Below, piece after piece: positions 1,535 through 18,926 of a stretch of 18,926 nucleotides of DNA. Each line of letters begins with the position of its first letter. Within the stretch, counting starts at the first letter, position 1. Position numbers and translations under genes: made by a program. This stretch comes from Nitrospirota bacterium (GTDB lineage: Bacteria; Nitrospirota; JACRHJ01): the NCBI GenBank assembly GCA_963733375.1, contig CAVTDB010000004.1, forward strand, positions 1 through 18,926. Reading direction: 5' to 3'. Under the pieces are notes generated by a model. That model worked only from the letters and a program-made list of their open reading frames with translations, was not told the DNA's origin and did no database searches.

Positions 1535-3074
1535 GTTTCCTCCCTCCGGACGGGATTCCCAGGCCAGGGTAGTCCACCCTGTGGTGGTAAATCCCGGAGA
1601 GGAGCTGGTTAAAGCTCCTGGTTATGGCGGTCAGGTCCTTCAGCGTCAGGTCGCACTCGGTAAGCTGGCCGTCCACGAAGAACCGCCCGATTATCTTGTC
1701 CACCAGCGCGGAAATCCTCGCCGGGGTCGGCTCTTCAAGCACCCTCGACGCCGCCTCCACCGCATCGGCCAGCATGACGATAGCCGCCACCTTCGTCTGC
1801 GGCCGCGGGCCGGGATAGCGGTAGTCGTCTTCGCTCACCGAGGCCCCTTCGGAGCTTTTGGCTTTTTCATAGAAGAAGCTCATCAGGGCGTTCCCGTGGT
1901 GCTGCTGTATTACGTCCGAAATCTGCGGCGGGAGGTTGTGTTCCTTCGCCAGCTCGTATCCGTCCTTCACATGCGAAGAGATAATAAGACTGCTCATGGA
2001 CGGGGTAAGCCGGTCGTGGCGGTTTTCGCCCTTCGCCTGGTTCTCTATGAAATACTCCGGCTTCTTTATCTTCCCGATGTCGTGGTAATACGACGCCACG
2101 CGGGCCAGGAGCGGGTTTTCGCCCACGGATTCAGCCGCCGCCTCGGCGAGGCTTCCGATAATGACGCTGTGGTGGTAAGTGCCCGGCGCGGCCATCATAA
2201 GCTGCTTCAGGAGCGGCCGGTTCAGGTCGCTGTATTCGAGGAGGCTTATGTCCGTGACCGTTTTGAACATGGACTCCAAAAGGGGCAGAATGCCTGAGAC
2301 CAGTATTGCGGAGAGGAAGCCGCTGGTTACCCCCGCGACGAGGTCATATATCGCCGCGCGGGTAAAAAGCACGTGCTGGTAGAGGTCGAGGCATAAGATG
2401 GAGGCGACGTTGGCCAAAGCCACGAAGAGCCCCGCCCGCAGAAGCGCCGAGCGCTGCGTGCACCGCAACAATGAAAAGCTGGCGATGACGCTCCCCATGA
2501 AGGTATAGAAGCCGAACATGAGCTCGTGCCCGATGAGGAGCCCGCCGAAAATGCTCATCACGATGGACATCACGATGCCCAGGTGGATGTCGAACAAAAG
2601 CGTGGCGAGCATCGCGGCGGTGGATATGGGGACGGCATAGAAGCCCGCGCGCCTTCCGACCCTTGGGAGGTTCCCGGTGAAGGTGGAAAATACCTCCGCC
2701 GAAACGCGGCTTATCGCGACGGCGCCGACGAGGATGACGCATACGAGCGCAAGCTTCTGGAGGTCATGGGTAAGGCTCCTCTTGTAGCGGCGCATGTCCC
2801 TGTACAGGACGTATATCGGCATGGAAACTACCAGGAGAAGCCCCACTATAGTCTGGAGGCTGTCAAGCGGAGACATCTTGGCAAGCTCGGAATAGTCTAT
2901 CAGAAGGACCGACAGGCCGATTACAAGCAGCCCGCCCATCACGGCCTTCTTCACCCTCTCGGAGTGGAGGCGCTTCACCGCCGGCCGGTTCTGTTTCTGG
3001 ATGGCAAGGGGCTTCGCTTCCTGCTTCCGAAGAGTTACGCCTACTCTTGCGCGCTCCCCCTTAAGGGCGGCCAT
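1428..3074 (-). CDS. Multi-TM HD (HDIG) phosphohydrolase, 7TM-HD / PgpH-like
   Basis: Multiple hydrophobic helices followed by [33 protein letters not shown]; usual position between phoH and ybeY. Confidence 0.9.
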
Positions 3075-4022
3075 TTTTTTCCTCGTACCTTTGGTATGCC
3101 TTGACTATCTGCTGGACCAGCCTGTGCCTGACCACGTCTTTTTCGGAGAACCGCACGAACTCTATCCCCTTTACCGATTCGAGGATCTTGATAACCTCTA
3201 TAAGTCCGGACCCCTTTTCCACCGGCAGGTCCACCTGGGTTATATCCCCGGTAATTACCGCTTTAGAGCCGAAACCCATCCGGGTCAGGAACATCTTCAT
3301 CTGTTCGGACGTGGTGTTCTGGGCCTCGTCCAGGATTATGAAGGAGTCGTTCAACGTGCGCCCGCGCATAAAGGCGAGCGGCGCGACCTCTATCGTCCCC
3401 CGCTCCATCAAACGGGCCGCCTTTTCCGGGTCCATCATGTCGTAAAGCGCGTCGTAGAGCGGCCTTAAGTAGGGGTGTACCTTCTCGTACAGGTCGCCCG
3501 GCAGGAAGCCGAGCTTCTCGCCCGCTTCGACGGCCGGCCGCGCAAGGATAATCCGGTTGACCTCTTTTTTCATCAGCGCGGCGACCGCCGCCGCCATCGC
3601 GAGGTATGTCTTTCCGGTGCCGCGGGGCCGATGCCGAAGACGATGTCGTGGGTCCTGATAGCTTCCACGTACGTCTTCTGGTTTTCGGTCTTCGGGCTTA
3701 TATGTTTTTTGTTGTGGCCGATAAGCACGGTGTCGGAGAATATGTCCTTGATACCCGTGCCGCTGCCGGCCTCGTAGGCCCGCATCGCCAGTTTAACGTC
3801 CTCCAGCTTCAGCGTATAGCCGCTCCCGACAAGCCCCGCCAGGTCCTTTATCAGCTTCTCGGCGTTCAGGACCGCGGGCTCCTCGCCCTCTATGGAAAGC
3901 TTGTTCCCCCTGGCCTTGATGTCAACGCCGGAGGTGTCTTCTATATACCGGAGGTTCTTGTCGAACTCTCCGTACAGGACCTTCAGGTCCTCGTCCGCCT
4001 CGATCAGAAGTTCCTTTTTCGT
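3061..4022 (-). CDS. phoH: PhoH-like ATPase (one frameshift in Walker A at ~3622)
   Basis: [13 protein letters not shown] restored by one G; [38 protein letters not shown]. The upstream frame is open to ~4040; the best start is ACG at 4022, 8 nt after GGAGG. Confidence 0.92.
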
Positions 4023-9740: not shown

Positions 9741-10999
9741 TTACGCCCTTGTCTTCGGTTTGGCTGATTTTTTAGGCTTTTTCGCCGCCTCGCCGAGGTT
9801 AAAAGCCTTGTGTAGCGCCCGCACGGCAAGCTCCGTATATTTGCCGTTTATGACGCAGGAGATTTTTATCTCGGAGGTGCTTATCATCATGATATTTATT
9901 CCCTCGTCCGCGAGCGCGGTGAACATAGCGGATGCGACGCCGGAATGCGAGCGCATACCCACGCCGACAATGGACACCTTGGAGATTTCGTCGTTCACGA
10001 TGACCTCTTCGCAGCCCGAGGCCTTCGCCGCGTCCTTTATCACGGGCAGGGCCTTCTTAAGGTCTGTCTTCGGCACGGTGAAAGAGATGTCCGTATAACC
10101 GTCCTTGCTGACGTTCTGGATTATCATATCGACAATGACTTTTGCGTCCGCGATGCTCCGGAACAGCTTCGAGGCCACGCCGGGTTTGTCCGGCACTCCG
10201 GAAAGCGTCACCTTCGCCTGGTTTTTATCGTATGCAACGCCGGAAACGACCACCTGTTCCATCGTCTTGTCCTCCTTCGTTACCAGAGTGCCCGGCGCGT
10301 CGTGAAAGCTCGAAAGCACCCTGACCGGCACGCTGTATTTTTTCGCGAACTCGACCGAGCGGGTCTGCAGCACCTTCGCGCCCAGGCTCGCCATTTCGAG
10401 CATCTCGTCGTATGAAATCTTGTCGAGCTTCCTCGCCTCAGGCACTATGTTCGGGTCCGTGGTATACACCCCGTCAACATCCGTATATATGTCGCAGAAA
10501 TCCGCCTTCAACGCCGCCGCCACCGCCACCGCCGTAGGTCCGAGCCGCCGCGTCCGAGCGTGCTTACGTCTTGCTCCTCGGTTATGCCCTGAAACCCCGC
10601 CACCACGGCGACTTTATTCTTGGATAGGGCGTCCCTGATCCTGCCGGCGTCTATGCTCTTTATCCTGGCCCTGGTATGCGCGTCGTCCGTGATGATCCCC
10701 GACTGCCTCCCGGTAAAAGACACGGCGTCCACGTTGAGGTCCTTCAACGCCATCGCGAGAAGGGCGATAGTAACCCGCTCGCCCGTGGAGAGCAGCATGT
10801 CCATCTCCCGCTCGTCCGGGTTGGACGAGACGCCGCCGGCCAGCACTATCAGTTTATCCGTCTTCCCGCTCATCGCGGATAGGACGACCACCACATCGTG
10901 TCCCTGCTTTTTGGTCTTCGCGACCCTCTTCGCCACGTTCTTGATCCTCTCGACGTTCCCCACGGAGGTCCCGCCGTACTTCTGCACTATCAGGCTCAA
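9741..10999 (-). CDS. lysC: Aspartate kinase (one frameshift at ~10535)
   Basis: GGAGG then TTG at 10999: [42 protein letters not shown], two ACT domains, STSEIKIS. Confidence 0.95.
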
Positions 11000-11009
11000 G
11001 TTGTCCTCC

Positions 11010-12206
11010 TCAAGGCACCAAAAGACGGTCGATGAGATCGACCCTTCCTCGATCACGAGTCCGGTCCCGGCGGCCGCCCGCTTCGTCATATTTAGAATTA
11101 TTTATTTTTCATCCTTCCCGGAATCCCATAACACGAACGGTACCGGGTCGCTTGTAGGTTTTTATCTTTATTGGCGTCGGGTGGTCGGGCATGGACAGCA
11201 CTCGGAAACCAGGCTTTCCCTTTACGGCTTAACACCGTCCCCACGACTTTTTCGTCGAAGTCCTCCACCGCCTGAATTTTATGCTGCAGGTTCCCGCTGT
11301 GCCCCGCTTCGTCCGGGGCCTCAACATGCACGTACACGAAATCAGCGGAGTCAAGTCGCGGAGAGCGCGGCCTGCGCCTTGCCTTTATAGTCCGTGTCGA
11401 TATAGCCGGTCGCGCCGGGGACTTCTATCCTTCATGCCAAGCGTCGCCGCTATCCCCTTCAGCAGGTCCACGGCGGAATGTCGCGCGGAATAGTATGCCG
11501 CTCCTTGAAGGCCGGGAGCGCGGGTTTTTTGCCCTGCCCCCAGAGCCATATCGAGTTCGCCCTGGACTTCCCCGCCACCAATCGCCTGCGGTTTACTTCA
11601 TGGCCGGAAATCGGGTCCACGGACGCCTTCATGATGCCCAGCAGGAAGTCCGCGCCCGGCCCGGAAGGCAGGTGGCCGTACGGGCTTTCCGGTTATGTCG
11701 TGCGGCGGAGTGCAGATCGCCCCGTCTTCGCCGCCCTTCCAGAGCATGAGGTGGCGGTAGCTCACGCCGGGGTGGAAACTTACGCCGCTACGTCCGAGCC
11801 TTTGTTCCAGTTCATGCACGAGGGCGCGCGCCTCTTCCGTGGAGATATGTCCGGCCGAGAAATCCTCCATCACCGAAGACTCGTATCCCTTTTCCAGCCC
11901 GGCGAGCGTAACCAGGTTGCACCGGTAAGCAACGTCGTCGGGCTCCAGCGGAAGTCCCATCGCGGCGGCCTCAAGCGGCGCGCGTCCGGTGTAATATTTT
12001 CGCGGGTCGTAGCCCAGGACGGAAAGGTTCGCAACGTCCAAACCCGGCGGTATTCCTTCCGGCACGGTCCTGGCAAGGCCCATCGTCCCGTGCGAGGCAA
12101 GGTAATCCAGATTTGGGGTCCTGGCATATTGAAGGACCGTCTTCCCGCCCAGTTCGCTAAGCGGTAGACCTGCCATTCCGTCGCCAAGCAGCACGAGGTA
12201 TTTCAC
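11010..12206 (-). CDS. apgM: Cofactor-independent phosphoglycerate mutase ApgM-like (proposed homoserine kinase family); many apparent frameshifts in ~11040-11690
   Basis: [31 protein letters not shown], then in shifting frames [43 protein letters not shown]; probable TGA at 11010 just before the lysC RBS. Confidence 0.88.
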
Positions 12207-12862
12207 TATTTCGCCCCCGCTTTGAGGAGCGCATTCGCAACTTCCTCATGTTTCTTCGCCTTCGCGAAGGCGAGCGCGGTATTGCCGAATTTATCCTTCG
12301 CGTTTACCTCCGCGCGGTGTTTTAGAAGCTCTTTGACCACGCCGTTCAAGTCGGCGGTAGCTGCTACCATCAGCGCTGTCGTGCCATCCTTACTCTTTAT
12401 ATTCGGGTTCGCCCCTTTTTCCAGCAGCAGTTTTACGATGTCCTCGTGCCCCATCGCCGCTGCGTATACAAGCGCGGTAACGCCGTCCTTCGCGCGGGCG
12501 TTCACGTCGGCGCCTTTGTCGATCAGCATATTGGCTATATCGGGATGGCCGTTAAAAGCCGCGGCCATAAGCGGCGTGTAGCCGTCGTTATTTTTCAGGT
12601 TCGGGTTCGCGCCGGCCTTAAGAAGCGTCTCTGCCGCGTCTTTTCCGCCTTCCGCCGCCGCGCGCAACAAGGGAGTATCCCCAGCAGTATCGCGCGCGTT
12701 CACGTCCACATGCCTCTTCACAAGCTCGCGTATGCCTGCCGCGTCCCCCGACTTCGCCGCATCGAAAAGGGACTTCTCCATCGGCCCTGCAAGGGCTGCG
12801 GCGGGGATAAAAATAGCCGCGAAAATAATAAGATATTTAAAGCAGGTTTGTGAATTCTTCAA
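12206..12862 (-). CDS. Ankyrin-repeat protein with predicted signal peptide
   Basis: N-terminus [18 protein letters not shown]; about 5-6 repeats of G-x-T-(P/A)-L-x-x-A...LL-x-x-GA-x-x-N. Confidence 0.92.
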
Positions 12863-13067
12863 TATCTAACCCTATGGATTTTAAGATCGTGGCTACAACC
12901 TTTCGTTTCAAAATTTTCCCTGAATGCCTTGGCACTACCGCCCTTTTATTATCGGATGCCCTTTTATAAACTACATGGCTTCCTCTGGTATGACTCACTT
13001 CGAATCCTAGCTTCTTCAAAACCTTTTCCAGGTCCTTCGATCCGACCGCCGGAAAATGAGGCGTCAC
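12837..13067 (-). CDS. hicA: HicA-family mRNA interferase toxin (copy 2)
   Basis: LKKLGF, RGSH, VVPRH, TILKSIGL; GTGA overlap with the upstream hicB. Confidence 0.9.
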   Translation of the reverse strand: MTPHFPAVGSKDLEKVLKKLGFEVSHTRGSHVVYKRASDNKRAVVPRHSGKILKRKVVATILKSIGLDIEEFTNLL

Positions 13068-13291
13068 GCGGCAACTTGAACCGACTGTACTTTTACATCG
13101 ACATCGTCCGGTATTGGCTCGTTATCTTTTTTTAAACTTTCAATATATGCGGCTATCGCTTCCTTTATATTTTCGACCGCCTCTTCGTAAGTTTCCCCCT
13201 GCGATACGCAACCTTCAAGAGCGGGGCAGCTTGCAAAGTAGCCGCCTTCTTCAGTTGGCTCAATGATCACATTATATCTATAATTTTTCAT
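13064..13291 (-). CDS. hicB: Short HicB-family antitoxin without a DNA-binding domain (copy 2)
   Basis: EEGGYFASCPALEGCVSQGETYEEAVENIKEAI...EPIP; 75 aa; AGGAGGT RBS. Confidence 0.9.
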   Translation of the reverse strand: MKNYRYNVIIEPTEEGGYFASCPALEGCVSQGETYEEAVENIKEAIAAYIESLKKDNEPIPDDVDVKVQSVQVAA

Positions 13292-13297
13292 ATATTT

Positions 13298-13324
13298 ACC
13301 TCCTGCTAATATCCCAGCGCCTTC
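13298..13324 (-). repeat. Junction motif copy B (thrC 3' end / hicB RBS)
   Basis: GAAGGCGCTGGGATATTAGCAGGAGGT, near-identical to 16770-16797. Confidence 0.6.
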
Positions 13325-14361
13325 ACCACTTCTTCCATCGTACCCTTTATGGAAAGCGGCTTGGTGGATACCTTGATGGCCGTGTCCGGGTCCTTGAGGC
13401 CGTGGCCTGTCAGAGTGCAGACGATACGCGCTTCCCCTTTATAATAGCCCAGGTTATTCAGCTTTATAACGCCGGCGATGCTCGCGGCCGATGCGGGTTC
13501 GCAGAATATCCCCTCCGTCGCGGCGACCAGCTTGTACGCCTCCAATATCTCCTCGTCCGTGACCATGTCTATTACACCTCCGGACTCGTCGCGCGCGGCC
13601 TCGGCGGTCTTCCATGACGCGGGGTTCCCGATACGTATCGCCGTGGCAACCGTCTCCGGGTTCTCCACCGGATGCCCGAGGACTATCGGCGCCGCGCCCG
13701 CCGCCTGGAAACCGTTCATTATCGGGAGCGACTTTATTTTCCCGGCGTCTTTATATTTTTTGTACCCCTTCCAGTACGCGCTGATGTTCCCGGCGTTGCC
13801 GACCGGCAGGGCGTGGAAATCGGGTGGGCCGCCTATCGCGTCGCATATCTCATACGCCGCGGATGTCTGGCCTTCGATGCGGTACGGGTTGACGGAGTTC
13901 ACGAGCGTTATGGGATACTTATCCAATATCTCCCGCACGAGCTTCAGCGCCTCGTCGAAATTCCCCTCGATCTGGATCACCCGCGCGCCGTGCATCATGG
14001 CCTGGGCCAGTTTCCCGAGCGCGATCTTTCCTTCCGGGATAAGCACGAACGCCTTAATACCTGCCCGCGCGGAGTACGCGGCGGCGGCTGCGGACGTGTT
14101 CCCGGTGGACGCGCAGATGACGGCCCCGGAGCCTTCCTCCACCGCCTTGGATATCGCCATCGTCATGCCCCGGTTTTTGAAAGACCCGGTCGGGTTCGCG
14201 CCGTCGAACTTAAGGTAAATATCGAGCTTCGGGTTGATAAGCTTCGCAAGGTTCTTCGTCCTGACCAGCGGCGTGTTGCCTTCAAGTAAAGTCACCACCG
14301 GCGTTTTTGCCGTCACAGGGAGAAACTCCCGGTACTCTTCGATTATCCCCTTCCAGGCCAT
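13306..14361 (-). CDS. thrC: Threonine synthase
   Basis: EGNTPL, NPTGSFK(N)RG PLP lysine, CASTGNTSA, PVGNAGNI, ATAIRIGNP, EPASAA, LTGHGLKDPD. Confidence 0.97.
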   Translation of the reverse strand: MAWKGIIEEYREFLPVTAKTPVVTLLEGNTPLVRTKNLAKLINPKLDIYLKFDGANPTGSFKNRGMTMAISKAVEEGSGAVICASTGNTSAAAAAYSARAGIKAFVLIPEGKIALGKLAQAMMHGARVIQIEGNFDEALKLVREILDKYPITLVNSVNPYRIEGQTSAAYEICDAIGGPPDFHALPVGNAGNISAYWKGYKKYKDAGKIKSLPIMNGFQAAGAAPIVLGHPVENPETVATAIRIGNPASWKTAEAARDESGGVIDMVTDEEILEAYKLVAATEGIFCEPASAASIAGVIKLNNLGYYKGEARIVCTLTGHGLKDPDTAIKVSTKPLSIKGTMEEVVKALGY

Positions 14362-14363
14362 CT

Positions 14364-14591
14364 CTATGCCACCTTTTCGTAAGATATTATTTCTATTTCC
14401 GCCTTACTACCACGCGCGCCTTCCACCGTCTTTTCAATAATTTTGGCAACAGCGTTTGGAATAAATTCTTCTCCACACTGATTGCATATATCCGCTGGAA
14501 CATTTTTAATGATTAATAAAACGCCGTTCAGCATAACTGGAAAGGTGGTTATACCTTTTTCCAATTTTCCCCTGCATAAAGGACAGTTCAT
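14364..14591 (-). CDS. YgiT/MqsA-type zinc-finger protein (putative antitoxin, no HTH)
   Basis: ATG at 14591 overlaps the upstream TGA (ATGA): MNCPLC...IKNVPADICNQCGE. Confidence 0.88.
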   Translation of the reverse strand: MNCPLCRGKLEKGITTFPVMLNGVLLIIKNVPADICNQCGEEFIPNAVAKIIEKTVEGARGSKAEIEIISYEKVA

Positions 14592-14908
14592 ATTCCCCTC
14601 CTCGTCTTCCAATCACTATGCCATTCCGCGGGTGACGGAGTATACATTGTGATGATAAAGACCATACCATCATTTTCATTTAACGCGAGGACAACGTGCA
14701 AAGGCTTGTTGCCGCTATAACCCAATATCAGATGACTCGGAAATGGTTTATCATCTTTATAGGTTTCAATAATTTCACCCCCGCCAATAGCATCCAGAAC
14801 TTCTTGACTGCCGATACCTCTTTCAATCAACCGCTTAAGCGCGTGTTTCTTCCATTCAATTCTCTCGTCCTTAACTAATCTCTTAATATTATCTAAAAAG
14901 ATCGACAA
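14588..14908 (-). CDS. DUF4258-family protein (putative toxin)
   Basis: HALKRLIERGI, EIIETYKDDKPFPSHLILG, PLHVV, IITMYTP..EW; paired with the YgiT finger. Confidence 0.85.
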   Translation of the reverse strand: MSIFLDNIKRLVKDERIEWKKHALKRLIERGIGSQEVLDAIGGGEIIETYKDDKPFPSHLILGYSGNKPLHVVLALNENDGMVFIITMYTPSPAEWHSDWKTRRGI

Positions 14909-14910
14909 TC

Positions 14911-16221
14911 TTATTCCTCGCCCTCTACCCGTATCACTATCGTCTTCGCGGAAATTACTTCCAGTTCGTCTATTGTCGCGAGCGCTTTTCTGACGTTTCT
15001 CTCCACCGCCTCGTGCGTCATGACGACGATAGGCACCGCGCTCTCCTCATCCCGTCCGTGCTGGATTACCGAGGCTATGCTTATGTCGTGCTTGCCGAGT
15101 ATCCCGGAAATTTTCGAAAGCACGCCGGGGCGGTCCTGCGCCGTGAAGCGGAGGTAGTACCGGCACCGCACCTTATCGATGGGCATCACCTTCAGTTTTT
15201 TTCTGTTCTCCCTGCGGAAGGAGGCTACGGGCATCCTGCCGGGCTTCCCGTAGAGGATGTCCCTCGATATATCCATAACATCCGATACGACCGCGCTTGC
15301 CGTCGGCATGTCGCCCGCGCCCCGCCCGTAGAACATCGCCGGCCCGAGCGCGTCGCCCACCACATACACGGCATTGAAAACACCGTCCACCTTTGCGATC
15401 AGATAATCCTCCGGGAGCATCGTCGGATGCACCCGCGCCTCGACTTCTCCGCCTCTAAGCTTGGCTATCGCCAGGAGCTTGATCTTGAACCCCAGCTCGC
15501 GCGCGTAGTGGATATCCTCCGGCAATATGCGGGATATGCCCTCGGTATATATATCCGCGAAGTTTATGGGCGTGCCGTAGGCAATGTCGGCGAGTATCGC
15601 AAGCTTGTGCGCCGGGTTTATCCCCTCCACGTCGAAGGTCGGGTCCGCTTCGGCGTATCCTAAGCCCTGGGCCTCCTCGAGCACGTCGTCGAAATCCCGC
15701 CCCTCGTCCGTCATCTTCGTGAGGATGTAGTTCGACGTGCCGTTTATGATCCCGTAAATCGCTTCGATGTTGTTCGCGGCGATGCCCTGTTTTATCGCGC
15801 CGATAATCGGTATGCCGCCGCCGACCGAGGCCTCGTATCCGACCGGCACGCCCGCCTTATCCGCCGCGGAAAATATTTCCTCCCCGTGGATCGCAAGCAA
15901 GGCCTTGTTGGCCGTTACGACCGGCTTGCCATTGGCCAGGGCGGATAAAATAAACTCCTTCGCCGGTTTGTACCCGCCGATGAGTTCGATTACGATATCC
16001 ACGTCAGGATGGTCTATTACCTCGCGGGCGTCCTTCGTATAAATACTCTTTGACAGATTCAGCGCCTTCGCGCGGGAGGCGTCCAGGTCCGCCGCCTTGA
16101 CGAGCGTAACTTCGGCGCCCAGCCGCCGCGAGATGATTTCCGCGTTATCCCGGAGGAGGTTCACCACTCCGGAGCCGACCGTGCCGAGACCGATTAAACC
16201 CACGCCGATTTTAGATTTCAT
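14911..16221 (-). CDS. hom: Homoserine dehydrogenase with C-terminal ACT domain
   Basis: GLGTVG, VVTANKA, YEASVGGGIP, GIINGTSNYIL, GYAEADP, GRGAG, DRPGVL. Confidence 0.97.
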   Translation of the reverse strand: MKSKIGVGLIGLGTVGSGVVNLLRDNAEIISRRLGAEVTLVKAADLDASRAKALNLSKSIYTKDAREVIDHPDVDIVIELIGGYKPAKEFILSALANGKPVVTANKALLAIHGEEIFSAADKAGVPVGYEASVGGGIPIIGAIKQGIAANNIEAIYGIINGTSNYILTKMTDEGRDFDDVLEEAQGLGYAEADPTFDVEGINPAHKLAILADIAYGTPINFADIYTEGISRILPEDIHYARELGFKIKLLAIAKLRGGEVEARVHPTMLPEDYLIAKVDGVFNAVYVVGDALGPAMFYGRGAGDMPTASAVVSDVMDISRDILYGKPGRMPVASFRRENRKKLKVMPIDKVRCRYYLRFTAQDRPGVLSKISGILGKHDISIASVIQHGRDEESAVPIVVMTHEAVERNVRKALATIDELEVISAKTIVIRVEGEE

Positions 16222-16299
16222 CAACTCTCAGTATCTCTTTTCACTTTTATCAACTTTGCCCCAAGCCTCTCTATCTCGCCAGGATCAATTTTGTATGCA

Positions 16300-16524
16300 T
16301 CAAAGACTTGCGAACTCGTCCGTCGAAATTCCCGCCTGTTTCAGTATCGCCCTGAGCGTCCTTTCCGGCATATCTCCCGGATGGTTGGGGATAGTGGTGC
16401 GACGCCTTGTTTCCGGGTTCCACCAAATCTCATGGCTACCTTTGGCGCCGCGGTCAAACTCGAAACCTGCGCGCTTTAGCTTCCTCACCACATCGCTGTA
16501 TTTAAACCCGCTCAGTATGCCCAT
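16300..16524 (-). CDS. hicA: HicA-family mRNA interferase toxin (copy 1)
   Basis: LKRAGF, AKGSHEIW, TTIPNHPGD, TLRAILKQAGI; TGATG overlap with hicB. Confidence 0.92.
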   Translation of the reverse strand: MGILSGFKYSDVVRKLKRAGFEFDRGAKGSHEIWWNPETRRRTTIPNHPGDMPERTLRAILKQAGISTDEFASL

Positions 16525-16763
16525 CACATCCCGACAGCTATATCCAAATCGATTTCCCGGCCCGGCCTTACAAGACCTTCCGGCAAGGGGTCGCCGTGCT
16601 CCTGATAAGATTCTATGAGCTTTCTTGCTACGTCGTGTGCTATGTCCACCGTCTCAGCAATCGTCCTGCCCTGCGCCACCAACCCAGGAAGCGACGGGCT
16701 GGTAGCGACATACCCGCCCTCGTCGAGTTCCTCTACATGAAGTCTCAAAAATATTTCGGACAT
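16524..16763 (-). CDS. hicB: Short HicB-family antitoxin without a DNA-binding domain (copy 1)
   Basis: EGGYVATSPSLPGLVAQGRTIAE...GDPLP; 79 aa; GGAGGTG RBS. Confidence 0.9.
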   Translation of the reverse strand: MSEIFLRLHVEELDEGGYVATSPSLPGLVAQGRTIAETVDIAHDVARKLIESYQEHGDPLPEGLVRPGREIDLDIAVGM

Positions 16764-16769
16764 GGCAAC

Positions 16770-16797
16770 ACCTCCGTCCTATTATCCCAGCACCTTC
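16770..16797 (-). repeat. Junction motif copy A (aminotransferase 3' end / hicB RBS)
   Basis: GAAGGTGCTGGGATAATAGGACGGAGGT, near-identical to 13298-13324. Confidence 0.6.
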
Positions 16798-17951
16798 TTC
16801 AGCCCCTTCAGCGCCTGTCTCGTCCTGTGCTCGTTCTCTATGAGTGCGAAGCGCACCCGGCCCTCGCCGTACTCTCCGAAGCCTATGCCCGGCGATACCG
16901 CGACCTTCGCCTCGGCAATCAGCATCTTCGAGAACTCAAGCGAGCCCAGATGCTTGAACTTCTCCGGTATCTTAGCCCATACGAACATAGTCGCGAGCGG
17001 CTTCGGCATATCCCAGCCTATCTTCGCCAGTCCGTCCACCAGACAGTCTCTTCGGACTCTGTAGACCTCCGTTATCTCCTTCACGCAGTCCTGCGGTCCG
17101 TTCAGCGCCGCTATCGCGGCTATCTGTATCGGCTGGAACATCCCGTAGTCCAGGTAGCTCTTTATCTTCTGGAGCGCGCCGACTATCTCCCTGTTACCGC
17201 AGCAGAAGCCCACGCGCCATCCCGGCATGTTGTAGCTCTTGGACATCGAGAAGAACTCGACACCGACGTCCTTCGCGCCTTTTACCTGAAGGAAGCTCGG
17301 GGCCTTGTACCCGTCGAATACCAGGTCGGCATAGGCGAGGTCATGGACGACGATGACCTTATGCTCTTTGGCGAACTCAACCACCTTCTCGAAGAACTCC
17401 AGGTCCACGGTTGCCGTGGTCGGGTTGTTCGGGAAGCTGATAATAAGCATCTTCGGCGCGGGCCATACCTGCCGGAACGCGGAGAGCATATCCTCGAAGA
17501 AATCCGAATCGCGCCGAAGCGGTATGTGCCGGACCTCGCCGCCCGCTATTACGACCGAATACGGGTGGATGGGATACGCCGGAGACGGGCAGAGGACTAC
17601 GTCCCCAGGCTCTATCGTCGCGAGCGCCAGGTGGCTTAAGCCCTCTTTCGCGCCCATCGTGGCGATCGCTTCCGTCTCCGGGTCGATATCCACGTCGTAG
17701 CGGCGCTTGTACCAGTCGGCGATTGCGGAGCGGAGCTTCGGTATCCCGCGGCTGGCGGAGTAGCGGTGGTTGCGCGGGTTATAAGCGGCCTCCACCAGTT
17801 TGTCCACGATGTGCTGGGGAGTGCCCATGTCCGGGTTCCCCATGCCGAAGTCTATGATGTCCTCGCCGCGCTTTCTGGCCTCCATCTTCATCTGGTTCAC
17901 GGCGGCGAACACGTAGGGCGGCAGGCGTTTTATCCTCGGGAAATCAAACAA
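16782..17951 (-). CDS. alaC: Class I/II PLP aminotransferase, AlaC/YfdZ-like
   Basis: [63 protein letters not shown]. Confidence 0.88.
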
Positions 17952-18090: not shown

Positions 18091-18926
18091 CTATCTCTTT
18101 ATCGCCGCAAAGACTTCTTCCGCGTTATACGAGCTCCGGACAAACGGCGCGGAGGCGACGGATAGAAACCCCATCCTTTTTCCGGTCTCAGCGTATCTCT
18201 CGAATACCTCCGGCAACACGTACTCCTCTACCTGCAGGTTCTCTTTCGACGGCCTTAAGTACTGGCCGATTGTCAGCAGGTCGCAGCCGGCGTCCCGAAG
18301 GTCGCGCATTACTGAGACGACCTCGTCCTCTCGCTCCCCCAGGCCCGCCATTATGCCGGACTTGACGTACACATCCGGGCTAAAGCTCTTCGCCGCGCGG
18401 AGCACTTTAAGAGAGCGCTCATAAACCGCCTGTGGGCGTACTTTCGGGTAGAGCCTCGGCACCGTCTCAAGGTTGTGGTTGAATATGTGCGGCCCGGCCT
18501 CTATGACTTTACGAAGCGCCGATGTAGACCCCTTAAAATCCGGGGTCAGTACCTCGACCACCAGCCCCGGGAACTCCCTCTTCAGGATACTTATGACCGC
18601 CTCGAAATGACCCGCGCCCCCGTCCGGCAGGTCGTCCCGGGTAACGGAGGTGATTACGGCATGTTTGAGGCCCAGCTTGCCAACCGCTATGGCGATATTG
18701 TCCGGCTCGGCGGGGTCAGGCGGCAGAGTAAGACCTTTTTTTACCGAGCAGAACCCGCACTGCCGGGTGCAGATCTCCCCCAGTATCATGAAGGTGGCCG
18801 TCGGCTTTTTGAAGCACTCGCCGATGTTCGGGCACTTTGCCGACTCGCAGACCGTATGGAGGCCAAGCTCACGCAGCTTGGCCTTGACCGCGGCCAGTTC
18901 GCCTATATTGTATTTTTTCCGCGCGT
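18091..18926 (-). CDS. lipA: Lipoyl synthase (5' end outside window)
   Basis: [12 protein letters not shown] (CX4CX5C) upstream of the listed ORF in the same frame, CTRQCGFC radical-SAM motif, NHNLETV, RSSY. Confidence 0.97.

Follow-up and report, generated by a model that had tools for sequence, protein, structure and literature searches.

Three toxin-antitoxin pairs interleaved with the threonine gene cluster of a Nitrospirota genome, with empty sites in its relatives

An 18,926-nucleotide (nt) contig of a Nitrospirota bacterium (CAVTDB010000004.1) carries a threonine-biosynthesis gene cluster in which three successive gene junctions are each occupied by a predicted toxin-antitoxin (TA) pair. 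The entire contig is the window analyzed here (labeled G000:C4, or C4), and it belongs to a 2.39-Mb metagenome-assembled genome (G000) that is 81% complete with 5.18% contamination. Genes were called from open reading frame (ORF) coordinates together with Pfam and NCBIfam matches. All credible genes of the window lie on the minus strand, in the order lipA-alaC-[hicB1 hicA1]-hom-[DUF4258 ygiT]-thrC-[hicB2 hicA2]-ankyrin-apgM-like-lysC-cpsB (Table 1). An earlier, sequence-only reading of this DNA had proposed the same gene order with TA pairs at three consecutive junctions, and both the ORF coordinates and Pfam bear it out. The gene alaC is the first co-directional gene of the cluster and follows lipA after an AT-rich spacer of 139 nt. 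The series alaC-hom-thrC-apgM-like-lysC recurs, whole or in part, in 29 loci across the phylum, co-directional and with gaps mostly below 60 nt; judged by this conserved, co-directional and short-gap layout, the genes from alaC to lysC probably form an operon that is read as one transcript.

Each TA pair fits closely into its junction. Gaps of 18, 2, and 14 nt, the values described before, separate pairs 1, 2, and 3 from the gene upstream, and the two genes of every pair overlap by 4 nt at their stop and start codons (ATGA/GTGA). On the downstream side, hicA1 lies 75 nt before hom (whose start is likely the ATG at 16221), ygiT ends 2 nt before thrC, and hicA2 overlaps the ankyrin gene by 26 nt, the ankyrin TTG start codon lying inside hicA2. 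Because the ygiT stop codon comes only 2 nt before thrC, the ribosome-binding site of thrC (AAGGTGG) falls within the final stretch of ygiT, the antitoxin gene. None of the six TA reading frames is interrupted. The GC contents of inserts 1, 2, and 3 are 53.1, 40.5, and 43.2%, versus 58.5–59.6% for alaC, hom, and thrC, and GC content at third codon positions (GC3) is 37–63% in the inserts versus 76–81% in the host genes. The GC contrast that had been proposed thus stands with its insert figures about right, but the host value is nearer 59% than the 62% given then.

Table 1. Inserted pairs and genes of the host cluster, in window coordinates. aa, amino acids.
Feature	Position	Strand	Basis and remarks
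Insert 1 (557 nt)	16225..16781	-	hicB1, hicA1, and a 75-nt tail (16225-16299); boundaries by blastn and alignment
hicB1, 79 aa	16524-16763	-	Pfam HicB, 18.6 bits (cut-off 27)
hicA1, 75 aa	16300-16527	-	Pfam HicA (PF07927), 75.5 bits (cut-off 27)
Insert 2 (541 nt)	14367..14907	-	DUF4258 toxin and MqsA-N-like zinc-ribbon antitoxin (ygiT)
DUF4258 toxin, 106 aa	14588-14908	-	Pfam DUF4258, 74.9 bits (cut-off 25); TTG start 2 nt past the hom stop
ygiT (MqsA-N-like)	14364-14591 from ATG (75 aa); 14364-14612 from TTG	-	Pfam MqsA, 25.2 bits (cut-off 30)
Insert 3 (~457 nt)	12849..13305	-	hicB2 and hicA2
hicB2, 75 aa	13064-13291	-	Pfam HicB, 46.7 bits (cut-off 27)
hicA2, 76 aa	12837-13067	-	Pfam HicA, 62.1 bits (cut-off 27)
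lipA, lipoyl synthase	18091..18924	-	Pfam Radical_SAM and LIAS_N; upstream neighbor, runs off the contig end
alaC, alanine transaminase	16782..17951	-	Pfam Aminotran_1_2, 222 bits; NCBIfam NF006033, 665.8 bits (cut-off 647)
hom, homoserine dehydrogenase with ACT domain	14911..16224	-	Pfam Homoserine_dh, 217 bits; NCBIfam NF004976, 562 bits
thrC, threonine synthase	13306..14361	-	Pfam PALP, 235 bits; NCBIfam TIGR00260 (thrC), 327.7 bits
Ankyrin-repeat protein, signal-peptide-like N-terminus	12206..12862	-	Pfam Ank, 145 bits
apgM-like gene	11098..12206	-	Two frames, 11598-12206 and 11098-11337; Pfam PhosphMutase, 177.5 bits
lysC, aspartokinase	9741..11089	-	Pfam AA_kinase and ACT domains across two ORFs; frameshift near 10520

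Pairs 1 and 3 belong to the HicBA family. Among 27 HicA sequences of the bacterial family to which the genome belongs (f1), hicA1 and hicA2 included, the sole invariant column is His31 of the GSH motif, the catalytic residue of HicA toxins. HicB1 and HicB2 match only positions 1–61 of the 123-position HicB profile and carry no further Pfam domain. The best matches of HicB1 in the Protein Data Bank (PDB) are the HicB chains 6hpb_B and 6u0i_A (E 0.0024), and it is 40% identical to another HicB of the family. Both antitoxins fit the description of Class 2 HicB: they are 79 and 75 aa long, lack a helix-turn-helix (HTH), ribbon-helix-helix, or Phd/YefM domain, and are encoded before, and overlapping, hicA.

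The toxin of pair 2 is predicted to have an MqsR/RelE-like fold. The AlphaFold2 model was built from an alignment of 124 sequences and replaced an earlier one from three sequences, whose mean confidence score (pLDDT) was 46. Its partner, ygiT, matches positions 1–56 of the 131-position MqsA profile as well as the structure of the MqsA N-domain (3ga8_A, E 9.5e-5), and has a four-cysteine zinc ribbon (CxxC...CxxC) that is invariant in four sequences; the protein ends after 75 aa, and the C-terminal HTH of MqsA is not present. These matches suggest that ygiT corresponds to the toxin-binding half of MqsA rather than to full MqsA, and that DUF4258-ygiT is an MqsRA-like pair with a 'headless' antitoxin. 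Consistent with the earlier proposal, no DNA-binding domain was found in any of the three antitoxins by Pfam, nor by the structure-profile match for ygiT; their profile matches are partial only. From the invariant His31 and the predicted fold of DUF4258, the toxins look active. DUF4258 has 2005 library representatives at E ≤ 0.001, and one scan of genome contigs for it returned seven loci. In a Candidatus Brocadiia metagenome-assembled genome (L088 1314-3569), a DUF4258-YgiT pair 53% identical to that of the window overlaps the stop codon of a heptosyltransferase gene by 4 nt and is followed by a DUF2321 zinc-ribbon gene, hence such tight packing occurs in another phylum too.

Relatives of the genome carry the same junctions without the pairs. 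A genome of the same genus (G002; genus g1) is 92–95% identical to the window at the nt level over the whole contig and has the same cluster order with no cassettes, and C5, another contig in the bin of the window, is likewise free of them. In G002 and C5 the three junctions measure 5, 6, and 56 nt, compared with 557, 541, and ~457 nt in the window. Contigs from three other metagenomes add further cases: X2 and X3 contigs bridge thrC and the ankyrin gene, an X4 contig bridges hom and thrC with the same 14 nt between them as in G002, and an X3 contig bridges alaC and hom, all without a cassette. Each of the four DNA runs searched (X1–X4) covered ≤0.18 of the stretch, and the bridging contigs alone were used. 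Read depth over the cassettes was low in X1 in the bin 14448-14651 and a trace in X1 and X3 in the bin 16284-16487; the cassettes were otherwise uncovered. Insert 3 replaced a 56-nt thrC-ankyrin spacer together with the original ankyrin start codons, so that the ankyrin gene now starts within the 3' end of hicA2, and alignments with relatives show a rewritten N-terminus. Since a motif of the thrC-ankyrin spacer is common to the empty sites of g1 and to genus g5, the filled site is the derived state. The three pairs are therefore genuine insertions, whose unoccupied sites are seen exactly in relatives.

We considered whether the arrangement could be an assembly artefact, that is, a chimeric contig in a mixed bin. 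The bin does hold two versions of the region, C4 and C5, its contamination is 5.18%, and several of its genes are frameshifted. However, none of the six TA frames is broken, the junctions keep register with the host stop and start codons, independent assemblies (G003, G009, G010, G011, and G030) repeat this design at these junctions, and relatives of the DUF4258 toxin at 82–92% identity occur in other data sets. The chance that the arrangement is artefactual is negligible in our judgment. As for C5 (locus L032), it is a second copy of the whole region, at 90–93% DNA identity, with many frameshifts and no cassettes; the bin therefore joins two related populations.

Across family f1, ten copies of the cluster from nine genomes could be read. 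Five of them contain TA pairs (the window, G003, G009, G010, and G011), none was found in the copies of G002, C5, G004, and G008, and the 3-kb contig of G005 gave no hit. The window copy has three pairs and the G003 copy four (MNT-HepT, HicBA, MNT-HepT, and HigBA), arranged as lipA-[MNT-HepT]-alaC-[HicB-HicA]-...-hom-...-thrC-[MNT-HepT]-[HigB-HigA]-...-apgM-like and accompanied by unknown genes. In G009, G010, and G011, DUF4258-YgiT precedes thrC, the toxin being frameshifted in G011. Beyond the family, G030 has the order thrC-(9 nt)-[DUF4258]-[MqsA-like]-hflX. The contents seen at these junctions thus comprise nothing at all, HicBA, DUF4258-YgiT, MNT-HepT, HigBA, and unknown genes. Empty sites in relatives (G002, C5, and X2–X4) and different cassettes at the same junctions in other genera are what the sequence-only reading had suggested looking for, and both exist. 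Cargo without TA similarity was also seen at the same junctions: small membrane zinc-ribbon proteins of 97 and 132–134 aa in G003 and in g5 and, in G003, proteins of 207, 251, and 180 aa without a Pfam or PADLOC match (L036, G003:C46, 5612-5905, 7494-8879, and 11689-12231; L033 8073-8471).

The cassettes appear to have been acquired separately, as had been proposed on the strength of their GC contents. In addition to that difference, the two HicBA pairs of the window are highly diverged from each other, and the HicA proteins at the alaC-hom junction of C4 and of G003, which is of another genus, are only 37% identical and belong to unrelated HicBA lineages. The DUF4258-YgiT pairs of g1 and g5 are homologous. 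Nevertheless, their four-fold degenerate sites are identical at only 12/37 positions between C4 and G009, versus 189/292 in hom and thrC (Fisher P = 2.5e-4; a small sample with differing base composition). This saturation speaks against co-inheritance and in favor of separate gains or allelic replacement. By contrast, the last 45 nt of ygiT (window 14364-14408; L033 7531-7575) are identical at 42/45 positions between g1 and g5, which may reflect either selection on the thrC initiation region or a recombination breakpoint.

The DNA-level homology at hom-thrC and the conserved 3' end would also suit another history, in which the pairs are ancient residents, inherited vertically from the family ancestor and repeatedly and exactly lost. 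TA protein identity between the two genera (61–68%) resembles that of the weakly constrained ankyrin gene (62%), as such a history would have it. However, the four-fold sites of the cassettes are saturated (28–37% identical) compared with 64–65% in hom and thrC, and cassette GC3 (37–44%) shows no drift toward the host range of 76–81%. The empty sites keep the ancestral form of the ankyrin start and the thrC-ankyrin spacer, C4 has the derived form, and the HicBA pairs at alaC-hom are unrelated in C4 and G003. Vertical inheritance would moreover need at least four exact deletions, each restoring a working junction. We regard it as very doubtful.

We next asked how the pairs may have entered. No integrase or transposase was found with Pfam among the 27 window ORFs, in agreement with the earlier reading. 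Around the three cassettes, a search for terminal repeats (inverted or direct), target duplications, and heptamer arrays found none; a 12-nt direct repeat with one mismatch flanks ygiT and is probably due to chance. The right-hand ends of the inserts show microhomology only (8 nt at insert 3), and no imported flanks were seen, the identity between C4 and G002 remaining steady beside the inserts in 150-nt windows. The sequence-only reading had put forward a route of spread that targets gene junctions. In favor of a dedicated, undescribed mobility mechanism aimed at operon stop/start junctions, the same junctions have been struck repeatedly and related cassettes occur at different junctions: a cassette at gcvPB in G002 is 79–84% identical to a G003 cassette located elsewhere. 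Against it stand the lack of repeats, duplications, arrays, and recombinase in the window, the microhomology at the right-hand ends, the deletion of 56 nt of host DNA by one insert, which resembles illegitimate recombination, and gap statistics equal to those of ordinary genes (see below). The targeting route is consequently not supported, and a dedicated mechanism strikes us as doubtful in the extreme.

Three filled junctions in a row are unlikely to be a coincidence. Profile searches for nine TA families in G000 returned six HicA, four HicB, one DUF4258, and three PIN hits (one PIN broken and one within a 359-aa frame), and no ParE/RelE, MazF, HepT, Phd/YefM, or HigB-like hits. The genome is TA-poor, with at most ~10 TA loci in 2.39 Mb. 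When 10 loci were placed on ~2400 junctions by simulation, three consecutive junctions were filled with P ~1e-4, hence TA density here is above random, a point on which the earlier reading had staked its claim.

We also examined where hicBA pairs lie across 12 genomes of the family. A HicA profile gave 48 hits, of which 47 had an ORF (L067, without one, was dropped); HicB calls relied on position, size, and visible motif, with seven of them checked by Pfam and one doubtful. At 35 of the 47 loci, hicB precedes hicA and encodes a HicB of 59–101 aa, and the other 12 are short or long hicAB, divergent HicA with long HicB, a fusion, and contig-edge cases. A co-directional gene ends within 20, 50, and 100 nt upstream of 10, 15, and 22 of the 35 hicBA pairs, and 13 have neighbors packed within 100 nt on either side. 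With the same crude gene caller, the corresponding values for 2357 ordinary G000 genes are 28, 36, and 46%, with 23% packed on both sides. Because cassette gaps resemble those of ordinary genes, tight packing alone is nothing special; that cassettes are spaced like ordinary operon genes therefore gives no support to junction-seeking, and suits elements that bring no regulatory DNA with them. Only one of seven loci with a long HicB bearing a DNA-binding domain has a gap of ≤50 nt upstream, versus 15 of 35 with a short HicB, which is at most suggestive given the few loci and closely related genomes.

Many of the short-HicB pairs lie inside other core operons, where the sequence-only reading had suggested counting TA pairs. 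The other three short-HicB pairs of G000 also lie between co-directional housekeeping genes: rlmN-xseB-(5)-[hicBA]-(-4)-ispA-dxs, priA-(45)-[hicBA]-(2)-methyltransferase, and DEAD-box helicase-(40)-[hicBA]-(47)-membrane protein-queC, with gaps in nt. Elsewhere in the family we found moaA-[hicBA]-moaC in two genera, radical-SAM-[hicBA]-purM-purN, [hicBA]-ruvB, hslU-[hicBA]-argB, leuB-[hicBA]-asd, thpR-[hicBA]-recA, hisG-[hicBA]-hisC, and [hicBA]-proA-nadD in three genera. Beside these, a conserved divergent arrangement of a 63-aa HicA and a long HicB (148–167 aa) occurs in G001, G002, G009, and G010 (L052, L055, L057, and L059); at the matching place in G000 (L045, G000:C2 70218-70586), profile searches found only the long HicB. 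Thirty-two nt after dxs (L043, G000:C20, 4647-5721), two genes encoding proteins of 180 and 179 aa, at 30–31% GC and without a Pfam or PADLOC match, form another foreign insert at an operon end.

Next, we considered how the pairs might be expressed. The window leaves no room upstream of them, and promoter- and terminator-like sites are no commoner than in shuffled sequence, as had been suspected: six promoter-like sites were counted versus 4.9 ± 2.0 in the shuffles, the 150 nt upstream of each cassette contain no match, and no terminator-like site was found on the minus strand at 12837-16797. Since the inserts have no promoter-sized spacer, terminator, or DNA-binding antitoxin, read-through transcription with coupled translation is their most likely mode of expression, and expression driven by the operon would be the most economical reading.

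Several observations weigh against this reading or the data behind it. The promoter scan used a sigma-70 consensus, which may not fit Nitrospirota, and promoters could lie in the upstream coding regions. There is a weak promoter-like site (9/12) on the minus strand at 14679-14652, inside DUF4258 and 60–90 nt before ygiT. Twenty of the 35 family hicBA pairs have >50 nt or a gene that is not co-directional upstream, and could carry promoters, and packing is no tighter than for ordinary genes (29% vs 28% at ≤20 nt; 43% vs 36% at ≤50 nt). The gene calls of the relatives come from a crude caller with three corrections by hand, and genomes of one family are not independent. Finally, the hot spot in G003 holds a HigBA pair whose antitoxin has an HTH, and the HicB1 match of 18.6 bits falls below the Pfam cut-off of 27.

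The most direct competitor on expression is that the cassettes are autonomous, each with its own promoter in the 3' end of the upstream gene or within the cassette. Promoters in coding DNA, the site within DUF4258, and the upstream room at 20 of 35 hicBA pairs all speak for it. In E. coli, mqsA has promoters inside mqsR. According to the accessible part of one report, most Synechocystis TA loci have their own transcription start site (TSS; Kopfmann, 2016; PMC4963859). On the other side, no promoter match lies within 150 nt upstream of the cassettes and the total equals that of the shuffles, and the antitoxins have no DNA-binding domain with which to autoregulate. The host sequence upstream is 91–98% identical to that of cassette-free G002, and a promoter there must therefore have pre-existed. 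On balance we think autonomy unlikely, though it deserves to be taken seriously. As an aside, the site within DUF4258, if real, could give antitoxin-only transcripts. Should read-through be wrong, promoters embedded in housekeeping genes would be implied.

Collectively, we favor the view that three unrelated TA cassettes inserted independently, are promoterless and expressed by read-through, persist as selfish elements, and entered by illegitimate recombination; taken as a whole this is probable, though well short of certain. In the sequence of events that we envisage, three unrelated type II TA cassettes would have inserted independently at three successive junctions, each bringing little beyond two ORFs with their own Shine-Dalgarno sequences, and entry would probably have been through illegitimate, microhomology-type recombination. 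Transcription would enter from the operon promoter, probably located in the 139-nt lipA-alaC spacer. The cassette genes would be translated from their own Shine-Dalgarno sequences or by coupling, with insert 2 supplying the ribosome-binding site of thrC, such that toxin and antitoxin output would stay in step with the operon. The pairs would thus be selfish addiction modules that ride on a housekeeping operon, and may be hard to lose because an imprecise deletion harms essential neighbors and the toxin is released once the antitoxin is gone. The operon junctions of f1 behave as a hot spot of the minimal-mobile-element kind: the flanking genes are conserved, the cargo varies, and mobility genes are absent.

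The same wiring would permit a function for the host. In such a scheme, along the lines suggested by the sequence-only reading, the pairs were recruited as a shut-off sensor: when phage or amino-acid signals shut the operon down, labile antitoxins would decay and three RNases would be freed, leading to abortive infection or a growth checkpoint. The lack of own promoters and DNA-binding domains allows this, three different predicted RNase toxins share one transcription unit, and the same operon has been colonized repeatedly in several genera; in the portion of the text available to us, Gerdes, 2024 (PMC10865869) makes the case that HicA modules serve in defence. However, close relatives and most environmental contigs are without the cassettes, which are dispensable for that reason, and the cargo varies between genomes, as expected of selfish elements and not of a conserved function. 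PADLOC, run on 15 inserted and neighboring proteins, returned only a weak HicA-like match (21.5 bits) and ankyrin-repeat matches. We deem host recruitment improbable. A broader conjecture, which we hold to be rather unlikely, is that TA pairs without a DNA-binding domain (Class 2 hicBA, DUF4258/truncated MqsA, and MNT-HepT) are in general promoterless 'operon hitch-hikers' at the junctions of essential operons, with the host promoter as the sole source of antitoxin and shut-off by phage or starvation freeing the toxins. If so, the f1 threonine operon would be its showcase, with up to four sensors in series.

Some features of the host cluster remain to be described. An ankyrin gene between thrC and the apgM-like gene occurs in family f1 only, among the loci examined (L009-L030 included), and seems to be an earlier insertion in this operon. 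The apgM-like product's N-terminal portion matches NCBIfam TIGR02535, a 'proposed homoserine kinase', at 244 bits and NF003242 at 250.7 bits; as a homoserine kinase, it would complete the threonine pathway within the cluster. Single frameshifts split lysC (9741-11089), the apgM-like gene (11098-12206), and phoH (3061-3785), as well as priA and the methyltransferase gene at L041 (G000:C9). Genes that are frameshifted in G000 are intact in G002, and the frameshifts are either assembly indel errors or real decay; lysC is one of those intact in G002, and in L031 its two parts share one frame. Downstream of the operon lies a tol-pal-like cluster (TolB, OmpA/Pal, TPR, PhoH, 7TM-HD, diacylglycerol kinase, and PAP2).

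Searches of the open-access PMC and bioRxiv literature (supplements excluded) returned no account of TA pairs that interrupt a biosynthetic operon at one junction after another, or of read-through expression of Class 2 hicBA. What is new here is the interleaving at three to five successive junctions, the link of missing promoter space to antitoxins devoid of a DNA-binding domain, and the presence of DUF4258 with truncated MqsA in that setting. Integron cassettes are likewise promoterless and expressed from an outside promoter, and TA cassettes are common in chromosomal integrons. The window differs in having no intI, no cassette array, and no attC-like inverted repeat, for which the 2 nt before thrC leave no room.

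A closer parallel is the minimal mobile element, defined by conserved flanks, variable cargo, and recombination only (Saunders and Snyder, 2002, in the definition as relayed in PMC8627216). The window junctions share with it, on that definition, the conserved flanking genes, the differing cargo, and the absence of mobility genes. They differ from it in that the sites are operon junctions of 5–60 nt, the cargo appears promoterless, and no imported flanks were seen. The series of filled and empty sites may serve as a model for how minimal selfish genes enter and hold essential operons.

Chromosomal TA units of E. coli are described as horizontally acquired and located between core genes (Ramisetty and Santhosh, 2016, as summarized in PMC5120126), and relBEF and mazEFG have no terminator, so that the downstream gene is co-transcribed (PMC5120126). 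As far as the available text of that article goes, those units have a promoter/operator and DNA-binding antitoxins (PMC5120126); the window pairs lack the latter and apparently the former, and lie inside an operon at three junctions running. For pair 2, the likeness is to E. coli MqsR-MqsA (PDB 3hi2 and 3ga8), where the toxin also comes first and the antitoxin N-domain is a four-cysteine zinc ribbon. The window toxin is, however, a Pfam DUF4258 protein and not MqsR, and the antitoxin lacks the whole HTH, and therefore autoregulation of the MqsA type. In the sections open to us, Gerdes, 2025 (PMC11980606) calls DUF4258 a BECR-fold family 'undescribed in the literature' and lists 17 DUF4258-MqsA fusions. 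The window may provide the first genomic and structural context for these uncharacterized toxins, as MqsR-like proteins with a 'headless' MqsA.

TA pairs that lack their own start site have an experimental precedent in Synechocystis 6803: Table 2 of Kopfmann, 2016 (PMC4963859) labels 11 of its TA pairs, including three HicA/HicB pairs, as 'TSS of TU' (the abbreviation TU as printed), with the nearest start site 660–7353 nt upstream. In the accessible part of that paper, these pairs are not treated as a class, linked to the lack of a DNA-binding domain, or described as interleaved with a biosynthetic operon. Lastly, Class 2 hicBA is reported to be the commonest class, experimentally untested and with its regulation an open question, in the text seen of Gerdes, 2024 (mBio 15:e03293-23; PMC10865869). 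The window and its relatives may offer a concrete answer to that question: such pairs may borrow the transcription of a host operon and need no regulatory DNA. Pairs 1 and 3 resemble Class 2 in having the antitoxin first, a HicB of 60–90 aa without a DNA-binding domain, a HicA of 60–85 aa, and overlapping genes (PMC10865869). They go beyond that account, which in its available sections is silent on position within host operons, in that both of them and 13 of the 35 family pairs are packed, within 100 nt, between co-directional housekeeping genes.

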